DNA from: Octopus vulgaris
Taxonomy: Eukaryota
Direction of reading: 5' to 3'
Assembly: GCA_951406725.2 (NCBI GenBank)
Contig: OX597826.1
Span: forward strand, 17,732,001 to 17,796,000
Length of the DNA: 64,000 nucleotides
Shown piece after piece: positions 665-53,158 of the stretch. Each line of letters starts with the position of its first letter. Within the stretch, counting starts at the first letter, position 1. The position numbers and the translations under genes are program-made. The notes below the pieces were generated by a model. That model had not been told where the DNA came from. It worked only from the letters and a program-made list of their open reading frames with translations, and did no database searches.

Positions 665-920
665 TAAAGAGTATGGAGAGTTGTACATCCACAAAATTTA
701 TTTTATAATCTTATACAGCATCTCATAATGGCCTACACTGAGTTCACTTCGAGGATGACCAAATGGATGGACCCTGATGAAGCTACACTGGCAGTAATGC
801 AAGGTGGCATTTGCCACAGTGAGTAGTAGCTTCAGCAGAAACACATGTGTAGGTCATTATAATGTGTGGCATAAGATTATTGAATAAATTTTGTGCATGT
901 ACAAGTTTCCATACTCTTTA
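665..920. mobile_element. Small fold-back element (~74-bp imperfect inverted arms) containing an HHR-like motif
   Basis: 665-738 taaagagtatgga...aatggcctacac is the imperfect reverse complement of 847-920 gtgtaggtcatt...tccatactcttta. Confidence 0.75.
770..855 (+). ncRNA. Type I hammerhead ribozyme-like motif
   Basis: Stem I gacc/ggtc; core CTGATGA (774-780); long stem II containing a gtggcatttgccac hairpin; GAAA (838-841); palindromic stem III acacatgtgt; GUA cleavage triplet. Confidence 0.7.
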
Positions 921-952
921 ATAATAATAATTATAATAATATATATATATTC

Positions 953-1306
953 TTTTATTCTTTTGTTTCAGTCATTTGACTGTGGCTATGCTGGAGCACC
1001 ACCTTTAGTTGAACAAATTGACCCCAGGACTTATTCTTTGTAAGCGTAGTGCTTATTTTATCAGTCTCTTTTGCCGAACTGTTAAGTTACGGAGATGTAA
1101 ACATACCAACATCGCTTGTCAAGCGATGGCGGGGGAACAGACACACAAACATTATATATATACACACACACACATACGACAGGCTTCTTCAAATTTCTGT
1201 CTACCAAAGCTATTGTAGAAGACACTTATCCAAGGTGCCATGCAATGGGACTGAACCCAGGACTGTGTGGTTGGTAAGGAAGCTACTTACCACACAGCAA
1301 CTCCTT
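953..1306 (-). mobile_element. tRNA-derived SINE (most abundant family in window)
   Basis: Head gctgtgtggtaagtagctt...gggttcagtcccattgcatggcaccttgg on the minus strand; similar copies at ~3695-3835, 5763-6168, 6955-7280, 7612-8013(+), 23295-23450, 32868-33282, 37515-37760 and 39640-40390(+). Confidence 0.85.
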
Positions 1307-1504
1307 ATATATATATATATATATATATATATATATATATAAACTGAGTATAGGTGCAAAGTAGTGTTTAGGTATGAGCAGAATTTAGTACCAGTAAAGA
1401 GATTTTTTCTCTGTGACAACTGCAGTGTATTTGCCTTTAGCAGCTGAAATATATGACAAACATATTTCAACTATCCTAAAGTCTGCATATATATATATAT
1501 ATAT

Positions 1505-1980
1505 ATTGGTAGACTTTTATCTTTCTTCATGTGAGTTCCTTAAAGACCTATGTGCTAGGAAAAAGATGGGTTTGCTTAAACAACTTGATGGATGCTGCAG
1601 ATATATAGATGATATATTTATACCTAATCATGGTTTCTTTGAATTTTTACTCAGAAAAATATACCCGAGTGAGCTTATAGCCACCAGAAATGGTAACAAT
1701 ATCAGAAATATTAATTATTTAGATGTCAATCTAGTAATTAAGGATAATAATGAAATATGTCCTGACATTTATAATCAAAACAGAAGATTTTGGTTTCTAA
1801 GTAGCTTCAATGTTCGGTAGTAAAATCCCTTCTTTTGTTGGTTATGATGTTTTTGAAGGGCAAATTGTTAGATATAGTACTATTATTAATAATTTTTTGA
1901 AAAGAATAAATAAGCTGTTAAGACATTTAGTAAAACAAGGGTATAAATATGGTAAATTGGCTCAAACTTTTAATTGCTGT
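1505..1980 (+). mobile_element. Decayed Penelope-like element reverse transcriptase fragment
   Basis: CCRYIDDIF...KIYPSEL...NYLDVNL, then a frameshift into KTEDFGF...SKIPSFVGYDVFEGQIVRY, matching the PLE RT YIDD / IYPxEL / YLD / KRDDF-like motifs. Confidence 0.7.
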
Positions 1981-1982
1981 TT

Positions 1983-2430
1983 ATAATAATAATAATAATA
2001 ATAATGAAATTATTGTATACAGTGCTCAGGTGCACCACAACTTGTCAGAAAGTGTGTATAAAGTATATACAGTAATGTACAAATGTCTGGAAAGTGAACA
2101 ATGTATGAGTCAGATACATGCTTGTGTGTGTATGGAGGGGAGAAAATCAGGTGTAGTGTTGGCGAATCTCAAAAAGCATGGAAGTCTTGAAGGATGCAGT
2201 GCTCCGACGACTAACAACTGATGCCGGCAGTTTGTTCCATGCTTCAGCAACTCTCAGCGTGAAAAAATGTTTCCTGAAGTCATGGGAGCTGTGCTGTTTT
2301 CTGACTTTGTAAATATGTCCACGGGTGTTAGACGGGTGGAGTTTGAAAAGGTGCTCAGAGTTATTGTTTGTAAGATGGTTAATAATTTTATGGGTGTCTG
2401 CCAAGTCAGCTGCCAGACGTTGGAGTTTAG
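1983..2430 (-). mobile_element. CR1/L2-group LINE 3' fragment
   Basis: EHLFKLHPSNTRGHIYKVRKQHSSHDFRKHFFTLRVAEAWNKLPASVV (TRGH..K..FF..RV..WNxLP C-terminal signature); (TTA)n tail at ~1983-2004. Confidence 0.85.
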
Positions 2431-50300: not shown

Positions 50301-51288
50301 AGCCAAATGAGGTCGTAGTCTTGGCTGATGCCAGTGTCACATGACTGGCCCATTAAAAGCACCCTTCAATCATTGGGCAATATACTGTGCTTGTAAAGAC
50401 CTGTCGAGTGAAATTGCAGTTGAGGCAGATGCTGGTGTTGTATGACTGGCATCTATGCTGGTGGTATGTAAAAAGCACCATTTGAGCATTAGGCTTCAAG
50501 GAGGCACTAATGGCAAGCCAAATGAGATCATAGTTGTGGTTGATGCCAGTGTCACATAACTGGACTGTTGAAAGCAACCTTCAATCATTGGGCAATATGC
50601 TGTGCTTTTGAAGACCTGTCGACCCGAAGAAAAATTGTAGTCGTGGCCAACGCCAGTGCCATCTTACTGGCACCCATGCCAGTGGCATGTAACAAGCATA
50701 GTTTGAGCATTGGGCCTCATGGAGGCAGTGACAGGTGACCAAAACCTTTGGTAATATACTGTGCATGTGTAGACCTGTTAAGCCAAGTGAGACCCTAGTC
50801 ATAGTTGATGCTGCCGTCAGGTCATTTTTTATGGGCCCACTACACTCTCAGAGTGGTTGGCATTAGGAAGGGCATCTAACTGTAGAAATCTTGCCAGATC
50901 AGATCAGAACCTGATGCAGATCCTTGGCTTACCAGTTTTCAGTCAAACCTTCCAATCCACATCATCATGGAAAGCGGACATCAAGTGATGATGTTGATAT
51001 AAGTTACACAAAGGCCTTTCGTGCTGATTTTTGTGAAAGAGGATAATGGTTAGCTCTTCTCGCTTGAGATTGCTGTTGGCCACATGTCGTGTTTGTTGGA
51101 AGAAATAAACATTGACATTTCTCAATTTAGCTGCAGGTGGTGAGATATGTTAACAGGTTGCCAGTTGGTCACTAACTCTCTAAAGACAAAACTTTGTTCT
51201 CGGTTAAACTGAGAACTGGTTTATTGACATTGCTGCACCTTAACTCTGATTGACTGGCAGCTGTAGCACTACTGTGCTACTACACCGT

Positions 51289-51418
51289 ATTGCACTGGCT
51301 TATCTGACTCACTACACACCATCCAAAACATTCCTCTTCAGTTCTGCAGCCCAATTGCACTGGCTTATCTGACTCACTACACACCATCCAAAACATTCCT
51401 CTTCAGTTCTGCAGCCCA
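51289..51418. repeat. Perfect 65-bp tandem duplication
   Basis: attgcactggcttatctgactcactacacaccatccaaaacattcctcttcagttctgcagccca x2. Confidence 0.92.
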
Positions 51419-51652
51419 CTAAAATTTCCTCCCAATACACATTTTCCTTATGGACCTGGATATATTATAATTCCAACTGAACACCAGGTAAATCAATCTC
51501 AACAGTCTGCAAAAGCACCTAAAGACCATGAGCACTTCTCTTCCCTGCATAAATATTAAGTTCTGCTATGTGACTCTCAGTGTATGTATCTTTGTTGACT
51601 ATCACATAAAGGTGTATCTATATATTTATATATATATATATATATATACATA

Positions 51653-52860
51653 CATGCTGAGTGCAATGGGTAAATTGTTGCCATTTTATATTTTTCATTT
51701 CATGCATGCGCATTGTTTGTTTTTGATTTTGTTGACTACACAGTATGGTAGGGTCAGTTGGGCACCATCTGTGAGAAAAACAGCACCAAGATGCAATTCA
51801 CTCTGCCAGAAATTTGGAAACGACATGCTGTCCTGCTTGGCATTTGCACTGGTAACTCCAATACGAACATTTCAGAGTTTTTGGGTGTCAATCTGAGGAC
51901 AGTGCAGAGGATTCAGAAAGAGTTGGATGAGTCTAATGATGATTACGAAGTATGGCAGCTTGGAAAACTTACTCTGATCATTCTGATTAGAAAAGAACTC
52001 CTGAATTTGTTGGTGAGATCCAGGCCAGGATTGATAACAATCCCTCCAAGTCAATCGGGTCCATTGCCAGGAACATAGAAGTGTCTGAGTTTCTTATCAG
52101 GCATGTAGTGCATGAAGACATGAGGTATTCCTCATACAAGAAAAGAATGGCAAATTTATATCCTAAGCCATCAAGGACAAGAGGAAAGACTGTGCTACGA
52201 AGCTTTTGAACAAACTCAAGCATCCCTTCCAACTGAACATGCTTTGGTTTTTCTCAGACGAGAAAAATTTCTGCCAGTTGGCTTGCTGTGTCCCTAAAAT
52301 ATGTACCAAGAGTGATAAAAATCAAACATCCAGCCAACAGCATGATGTTTGGAGCAATCACTTAGTGATGATAATGTGCCTCCATTCATCTTCCCACACA
52401 GCCTCACACTCAACACGGAGGCCTATGTCAAGTGCCTGGAGGAGGTAGTGCTGCCCTGGGTCAAGAGGGTGGCTGCTGAAAGACCCTATGTCTGGCAACA
52501 GGACTCGGCACCATGCCAAGCAGGGGACCCCAGTCATGGCTATCAGACAATTTCTGCAACCACATTACCTGGCCACCTAACTCCCCAGACTGTAACTCCC
52601 TTAATTATTATGCGTGGGGCACAGTTGAACAAGAGACCAACAAAACTCCTTGTAACACCAAAGATAAACAAAAGGCAAGGACTATGACAGCATTCACCAA
52701 CTTAAACAAGGAGACTGTCCAGAAGAGTTGCAGGAGATTCTGAAGTCATCTGGAGGCCATAATTGAAGCCAATGGCGATTTTATTGAATAAATTTACTGT
52801 TTAGTATTTCAAGATATTTTGATGCAATTTTGGTAAATATATCTTTTAAAATGAGATGTC
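51653..52860 (+). mobile_element. Decayed Tc1/mariner transposon (maT/DD37D-like)
   Basis: HTH-like ISEFLGVNLRTVQRI; WFFSDEKNF; YVWQQDSAPC; WPPNSPDCNSLNYYAWG; several frameshifts. Confidence 0.85.
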
Positions 52861-53082
52861 AGGTACAGGTTTTAATTAAAGCACTCCTTGAATTTACCTG
52901 AGATTTTAACTAAAATCCTGTACCTTCATAGAAGTACCAATCAACATCCATATCCTCCAGATAAAAGATGAGTCGTAAACATTATTCTCCTGCCTGTATT
53001 CTTCCAACTACTTTTACTCTTTATTATTGTATTTTACTCCTTAGAAACTGTAAATTTTCCCCGTCTAAAATATTCATACCTT

Positions 53083-53158
53083 GTCTCTGATGATGGAATA
53101 CCCAGTGCATGGATATGCTAACCTGCTACTTGGGTTATCCCATAAATGGCTGTAAGAC
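53083..53158 (+). ncRNA. Degenerate hammerhead ribozyme motif (G12 replaced by T)
   Basis: gtct-CTGATGA-tggaatacccag...ttgggttatccca-TAAA-tggctg-T-A-agac; stems I and II pair, GAAA box mutated. Confidence 0.55.

Follow-up and report, generated by a model that had tools for sequence, protein, structure and literature searches.

Hammerhead ribozyme motifs in the introns of an octopus flippase gene are probably relics of Penelope-like elements

The subject of this study is a set of nine hammerhead ribozyme (HHR) motifs within a 64,000-nucleotide stretch of Octopus vulgaris DNA (GenBank assembly GCA_951406725.2, contig OX597826.1, positions 17,732,001 to 17,796,000 of the forward strand). This whole stretch is called the window, and positions without a locus name are counted from its first base. 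The assembly comprises 2.8 Gb, with about 30 large contigs. An earlier sequence-only reading had placed the motifs, one of them as doubtful, inside a single flippase gene, assigned them to a diverse set of ribozyme-bearing mobile RNAs, and suggested that the sense-strand copies might cut the host pre-mRNA or release small circular RNAs. The results presented here suggest that the nine motifs are probably inert intronic copies of repeats that belong to, or were probably mobilized by, Penelope-like elements (PLEs).

The host gene lies on the + strand and encodes a P4-ATPase (flippase). Translations of its exons matched P4-ATPases with a best E value of 4e-21, and Pfam P-type ATPase matches were obtained for two of 14 exon pieces. 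The gene is a putative ATP10, a label that agrees with its motifs and goes beyond the P4-ATPase assignment established by the matches. Its coding exons in the window span positions 16309 to 63096 (+), for example 16309−16513, 29750−29832, 38932−39038, and one starting at 53555, and more flippase exons were found downstream of the window. The first coding exon, which carries the N-terminal flippase segment, was located about 21 kb upstream of the window (L036:8485−8991). Its splice to the exon at 16309 keeps the reading frame, and the first coding intron is about 37 kb long. Because this exon lies upstream of the window and is joined in frame to the exon at 16309, all nine motifs are intronic; the proviso that the first two copies would be intronic only if a first exon lay further upstream is thereby settled. 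Relative to the flippase, four motifs are in the sense orientation (770, 8235, 19700, and 53083) and five are antisense.

All nine motifs were recovered at the positions and on the strands first reported. Each is a single copy of a dispersed repeat, the commonest form of which is a type I HHR. The claim that they have CYGANGA...GAAA cores with complementary stems held in part: the core boxes are intact in five (770, 8235, 18924, 19700, and 20009), and in the other four an invariant core base is changed: C3 has become G at 34833 and 37406, and G12 has become U at 53083 and C at 17943. Even among the five, the copy at 20009 lacks the 5′ arm of stem I, and in that at 8235 an A-C mismatch interrupts the 3-bp stem II. 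We wrote a full structural descriptor, which requires, besides the core, a stem I, a stem II that opens with a G-C or G-U pair, self-complementarity in the region of stem III, and an NUH triplet; three of the nine copies (770, 18924, and 19700) matched it.

The individual copies had the following properties. HHR 1 (770−855, +) has intact core boxes, a 4-bp stem I, a palindromic stem III, and a stem II of 3 bp followed by two broken pairs; its predicted cut, at GUA, falls after 851, and it sits in a remnant (653−951) that has an inverted partial arm. HHR 2 (8235−8279, +) has an intact core, a 6-bp stem I, the palindrome AUCGCGAU, a stem II made of G-C, the A-C mismatch, and G-C, and a predicted cut at AUA after 8273; it is the only HHR in a 1.2-unit copy (8014−8439) of a retrozyme-like family with tandem units of about 352 bp. 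HHR 3 (18924−18986, −) and HHR 4 (19700−19762, +) are both intact, with the variant core CCGAAGA and a GUU triplet. The former lies in the antisense arm of an inverted pair, and the latter, with its predicted cut after 19756, lies about 200 nt past the stop codon of a PLE open reading frame (ORF). HHR 5 (20009−20090, −) has intact core boxes and a (TA)n tract in place of the 5′ arm of stem I. HHR 6 (34833−34876, −) is a dead copy within a remnant (34759−35079) of a highly abundant family whose minimal stem III is ACGU; HHR 7 (37406−37460, −), also dead and with a poly-G loop II, belongs to the same family. HHR 8 (53083−53158, +) is a dead copy in which the G12 change converts the box to UAAA, and the exon at 53555 begins about 400 nt further on. 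HHR 9 (17943−17990, −), the motif called doubtful, proved to be a genuine family member, now dead, in which the 5′ arm of stem I is gone; its family normally has a full hairpin stem III.

The window contains 13 instances of the bare CYGANGA...GAAA pattern, against 10.0 ± 3.1 in 150 local dinucleotide shuffles; because this is the chance level, the bare core count was rejected as evidence. The full descriptor gave three matches in the window and none in any of the 150 shuffles (one match per 150 at its loosest setting). Counts no higher than in shuffled sequence, the outcome that the sequence-only reading had held against its own proposal, were obtained for the bare core and not for the descriptor. 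Because the descriptor was written after the motifs had been seen, the window test was not blind; on 0.95 Mb of unseen background DNA it gave 28 matches, compared with 4 over 20 shuffles of the whole set. An Rfam scan of the window returned no hammerhead model among 97 matches at E ≤ 5, most of which fell on microsatellites and were to models of microRNAs, small nucleolar RNAs, and further small RNAs. When the motifs were folded as single strands, their z-scores were mostly unremarkable, and the two low scores (770 and 17943) arose because the folds bury the core.

The nine motifs fall into seven repeat families, designated 1, 2, 3/4, 5, 6/7, 8, and 9 after their HHRs, where at least five had been proposed. 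For each motif, scoring of the best 40 candidates gave 40−55 matches; the first-look candidates numbered at least 71 to 1,876, depending on the motif. For each family the 30 best loci were aligned, or 20 in the case of family 9; these are the copies nearest to the window copy and not a random sample. In all seven families the commonest form has type I topology, CUGANGA-like and GAAA boxes, an NUH triplet, family-specific stems, and G-C as the first pair of stem II (G10.1-C11.1). Both core boxes were intact in 21, 26, 27, 23, and 24 of 30 copies in families 1, 2, 5, 6/7, and 8, respectively, and in 10 of 20 in family 9; in family 3/4 the full core was intact in 29 of 30. Six families have a palindromic 15.2−16.2 region or a minimal stem III, and family 9 has a hairpin instead. 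An unpaired base between 9 and 10.1 is present in families 1, 2, 6/7, and 8 and absent from 3/4, 5, and 9.

Stem pairs were compared within five families; families 2 and 6/7 were omitted because their yardstick failed the descriptor. The comparison yielded 1,386 unchanged pairs, 81 with one side changed, 10 with both sides changed, and 138 broken pairs. The covarying stems anticipated by the sequence-only reading were present in the form of the 10 compensated pairs, but with 138 broken the covariation is weak; such a pattern would be expected for decay. Core positions changed less than composition-matched neighbors (48 changes observed, 88 expected), with no excess conservation in two of the six families (5 and 6/7), although the test is not independent because the copies are related. 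We read this conservation as probable selection on the source elements followed by decay of the copies. In all seven families the 3′ end is fixed, whereas the 5′ ends are ragged. Inverted pairs with their 3′ ends outward recurred in six families and occurred once in family 9; such loci numbered 8/30, 7/42, 14/30, 2/30, 17/30, 11/30, and 1/20 over the seven families, with some insertions entering the count twice, once for each half. This layout has been described for PLEs (PMC8557442, PMC4209133).

The firmest link to a mobile element was found for family 3/4. At one locus (L031) a complete PLE carries an HHR, a 717-amino-acid ORF, and a second HHR on one strand, with a spacing of 2,590 bp, and adjoins an inverted copy. 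A 5′-truncated, inverted insertion of this young element occupies window positions 18891−19795 between (TA)n tracts. Its arms of 249 nt each (18891−19139 and 19547−19795) are 98% complementary, and it retains the last 107 codons of the PLE ORF, the GIY-YIG endonuclease end (19190−19510, +), which are 100% identical to the intact 717-amino-acid ORF elsewhere in the genome. The nearest Atlas clusters to this ORF carry HTH_animal, GIY-YIG, and RVT_1 at 0.96−0.99. The ORF has RWK at residue 46 and DKT at 123, and its C-terminal part has CxCX5C at 566, a cysteine-free IIY...YVG at 585, CxxC at 669, and CxH at 700; a GxKF/Y motif was searched for in the ORF without a match. Every Hydra-clade motif as defined in PMC8557442 was found in it. 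The family has a single ORF, a unit of less than 3 kb, and HHRs in its terminal repeats. Because all 150 scored matches to the endonuclease end in the window were 100% identical and several retain the 717-amino-acid frame, we consider the family very young, and by these sequences it looks recently active.

Several further observations concern this element and its relatives. The reverse-transcriptase catalytic motif of the young PLE reads YKDD (L031:987−3137, −). With the CCGAAGA core and GUU triplet retained in 29 of 30 copies, its HHR may be a suitable intact substrate for PLE biochemistry. In two relatives (L278:7376−7479 and L217:2311−2447) the inversion breakpoint lies within the HHR, creating overlapping motifs on opposite strands. 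RNA editing is heavy in coleoids, and the 249-nt arms would give a long double-stranded region in the pre-mRNA that is a likely target of adenosine-to-inosine editing. Elsewhere in the window, a fragment of another PLE endonuclease (21540−21764, −) is 32% identical to the family 3/4 ORF. A broken reverse-transcriptase fragment (1398−1983, +) with YIDD and a putative PLE-like thumb is possibly of the Naiad type; it had no Pfam match and belongs to a different element than HHR 1.

For family 1, a degraded GIY-YIG coding sequence within about 850 bp upstream is shared by three loci (L052, L055, and L059), and the copies are 77−85% alike. Judged by sequence, HHR 1 is the 3′ end of an old PLE family. 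Family 2 forms head-to-tail arrays of 343- to 353-bp units with one HHR in each unit at 7 of 42 loci (five distinct arrays), with periods of, for instance, 350 bp (3.1 copies) and 353 bp (2.5 copies); its window copy is a solo of 1.2 units with one HHR and not such an array. A tblastn comparison of 30 family 2 loci with the PLE ORF gave no match, and no dedicated ORF scan of the unit was made. Family 5 is abundant and AT-rich, and no coding region was found upstream on either strand in up to 1.5 kb searched.

Other features of these families and of the gene were noted in passing. Family 9 (L190, L196, and L203) combines its hairpin stem III with stems I and II of 5 bp each, an architecture in which a monomer could cleave itself. 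Direct repeats of 328 and 348 bp, present in 2 of its 20 loci, suggest that this family is an older one resembling retrozymes. Two antisense motifs lie in the same gene outside the window: a family 6/7 member with a broken GAAA box (L034:2470−2546, −) and a weak family 1 match of 22.8 bits (L297:3885−4013, −). The window also contains broken DNA-transposon ORFs, all on the + strand: by their motifs, one is putatively piggyBac-like (35040−36671) and one putatively Tc1/mariner-like (51750−52740), and a third is a transposase-like remnant (30535−32372).

The background set of 0.95 Mb consisted of 29 stretches of 10 kb at pre-chosen round coordinates plus 660 kb of myosin gene bodies. The latter were spans between collinear myosin-head exons at 17 loci, by which the strand was fixed; they were derived from exon matches, and two hold gaps of 80 and 150 kb. 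There were 11 descriptor matches in the random stretches and 17 in the myosin gene bodies, and the 28 together formed 17 sequence clusters, in agreement with the proposal that this genome harbors diverse ribozyme-bearing repeats. The density of 29 per Mb corresponds to approximately 55,000−119,000 HHRs genome-wide (53,000−190,000 from the random set alone), intervals that are too narrow because the matches come in pairs. At this density 1.9 matches would be expected in the window, compared with the three observed (P = 0.29). The descriptor had no match in a further 60 kb on the flanks, most of it from the same gene, making three seen and 3.7 expected for window plus flank. These counts do not support the view that the gene is unusual. 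The myosin gene bodies contained 10 sense and 7 antisense intact HHRs (10/17, P = 0.63), so that the comparison of strands suggested by the sequence-only reading revealed no sense depletion, and the density in gene bodies did not differ from that in random stretches (P = 0.31). We regard the locus as ordinary for this genome and the motifs as transposon debris.

Folding was predicted for the sense copies. In HHR 1 the CUGAUGA box was predicted to pair with the 3′ side of stem II (0.88−1.0), with stem II itself at 0.0, and in HHR 2 the predicted pairing of stem II was at most 0.06. HHR 4 was predicted to be fully paired (1.0) with the 249-nt antisense arm, which is transcribed earlier in the host pre-mRNA. 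HHR 8, the fourth, has its broken core, and no family has two same-strand HHR copies in the window.

Our interpretation, to which we assign a probability of roughly 0.85, is that the nine motifs are intronic copies of HHR-bearing repeats of seven families, two tied to PLE proteins and five likely PLE-mobilized, and that they are likely inert relics. The elements are of a known kind, and the earlier observation is real but overstated for four of the nine copies; its link to the type I hammerheads of PLEs and retrozymes is supported by the family forms and by the complete PLE of family 3/4. As published work on PLEs suggests, reverse transcription would start just 3′ of the HHR and usually stop early, and for that reason the HHR end would be the piece copied most often. 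The HHR itself likely serves the element's own RNA by trimming tandem transcripts, either as a dimer or with the help of the PLE protein, and inserted copies likely decay without selection. The five antisense copies would be unable to act in the flippase pre-mRNA; of the sense copies, one is broken in the core and three are predicted to be misfolded or masked and lack a same-strand partner.

Several points weigh against this interpretation. Sequence searches of Pfam and the PDB did not recognize the 717-amino-acid ORF. Within 1.5 kb, the families of HHR 2, 6/7, and 9 had no protein link, and the few protein matches in the vicinity of families 5 and 8 either were inconsistent or fell beyond the sequence common to the copies; for families 2, 5, 6/7, 8, and 9 it is the layout that points to a PLE origin. 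The core conservation may also reflect selection on inserted copies. The strand test was small, with a 95% interval of 33−82% sense, and drew on one gene family. The seven families account for nine copies in the 64-kb window and 18 profile matches in the 0.95-Mb background. Equilibrium folding ignores co-transcriptional folding and protein help, and retrozymes are reported to be under-represented in Xenopus introns (bioRxiv 10.64898/2026.07.22.740005), which argues mildly against full neutrality.

The alternative that survives best is that at least one sense copy (770, 8235, or 19700) cuts the flippase pre-mRNA at a rate that matters, possibly with the protein of an active PLE or an abundant retrozyme RNA serving in trans as chaperone or dimer partner. 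In each of these three copies the two core boxes are intact and the triplet is cleavable; the 19700 family shows signs of recent activity, and an intron of 37 kb would give time. In published work, a single minimal HHR of Schistosoma mansoni did not cut and dimers cut weakly (PMC4209133), and a PLE HHR from anole was cleaved only with protein, lost cleavage upon C3G substitution, and had no RNA-seq reads ending at its site (PMC11167929). Because the predicted folds sequester, unfold, or mask the cores of HHR 1, 2, and 4, and gene bodies showed neither sense depletion nor a density different from random stretches, we consider such cutting unlikely, contrary to the earlier proposal. A wider version, in which PLE protein, where expressed and if PLE hammerheads are indeed assisted by protein, could activate dormant intronic HHRs in trans so that many host pre-mRNAs including that of the flippase are cut, and in which the 352-bp family is a cephalopod retrozyme, must be regarded as a long shot. 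Its basis would be some 100,000 structurally complete HHRs, with about half of the intronic ones in the sense orientation, and a PLE family that continues to make copies of itself. A description of the 352-bp family as a cephalopod retrozyme was sought and not found in a literature search that covered few subscription journals.

A hotspot at this gene, or selection for the accumulation of hammerheads in it as regulatory elements, is very improbable. The apparent enrichment of the seven families in the window is circular, because the families were picked from the window, and the family-blind descriptor showed no such excess; scaled by the one-in-three intact share of the window, 5.7 motifs would be expected (P for nine or more = 0.12), and four of the nine cores are broken. 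Release of small circular RNAs from this locus is scarcely credible. The tandem layout of family 2 elsewhere in the genome, with one HHR per unit of about 350 bp, is the arrangement from which circles arise in mussel, coral, and axolotl (PMC7229834), but the window copy of 1.2 units has a single HHR, no family has two on the same strand, and cuts by different families would free 7- and 11-kb pieces in place of small circles. A view of the motifs as random occurrences of a short pattern, to which the bare core count and the Rfam scan might point, is already refuted by the descriptor counts in the window and background and by the alignments of seven unrelated families, each with its own complementary stems around one shared core.

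For the flippase gene itself, the relics we take these motifs to be have little importance. The by-products of the analysis are a first estimate of a very large octopus HHR load, a young intact Hydra-type PLE with an unusual HHR core, and a retrozyme-like 352-bp family. These bear on the open question of what role PLE hammerheads play and why long introns tolerate sense-strand copies.

Our literature search, in which coverage of subscription journals was thin, found no paper on octopus hammerheads or retrozymes. Giant squid has 235 Rfam hammerhead hits (PMC6962438), and 31 recently active PLE families have been described in O. vulgaris, in passages that do not mention ribozymes (PMC13282606). 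A section heading gives up to 120,000 for axolotl (PMC7229834), and because of that figure the genome-wide total estimated here is not unprecedented. The sense-strand motifs resemble the hepatitis delta virus-like ribozyme of CPEB3 in being of a self-cleaving type on the sense strand of an intron; however, the CPEB3 ribozyme is described as conserved in mammals and as having measured activity (PMC10274809), whereas those described here are multi-copy, decaying transposon ends known from sequence.

Family 2 is like the animal non-LTR (long terminal repeat) retrozymes (PMC7229834; bioRxiv 10.64898/2026.07.22.740005) in its head-to-tail 343- to 353-bp units with one type I HHR each and in its many solos; retrozyme units in mussel are about 350−390 bp (PMC7229834). 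The direct repeats of family 9 are a similar likeness. Family 2 differs from retrozymes in its ribozyme, HHR 2 being of the minimal PLE type and weak in stem II where a canonical HHR would be expected, and in its arrays, which are short (2.5−3.1 units) and known here from DNA. Family 3/4 shares with the Hydra clade of PLEs (PMC8557442) RWK, DKT, the CxCX5C linker, the cysteine-free GIY-to-YIG stretch, CxxC and CxH near the end, a unit of less than 3 kb, (TA)n flanks, and an HHR in the repeats. Hydra-1_Obim of Octopus bimaculoides, of 2,507 bp with a (TA)n target, is described as having "no pLTR" (PMC8557442, file S1); by that description family 3/4, with clear direct terminal repeats and tandem copies, is set apart from it.

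The closest comparison is with the minimal HHRs of metazoan PLEs (PMC4209133). Families 1, 2, and 8 differ from these in that stem II is flanked by an unpaired base on either side. Family 3/4 differs in its CCGAAGA core, GUU triplet, and extra base on the 3′ side, and family 9 in its full hairpin stem III. The density of about 29 per Mb is higher than the published counts, such as approximately 9,000 in Xenopus tropicalis, although the descriptors differ. The octopus motifs share with these PLE ribozymes the type I fold, the short stem I, the palindromic or minimal stem III, the G10.1-C11.1 pair, the extra base between 9 and 10.1 (families 1, 2, 6/7, and 8), and the occurrence of many families per genome, mostly as single truncated copies, with opposite-strand pairs 100−700 bp apart.

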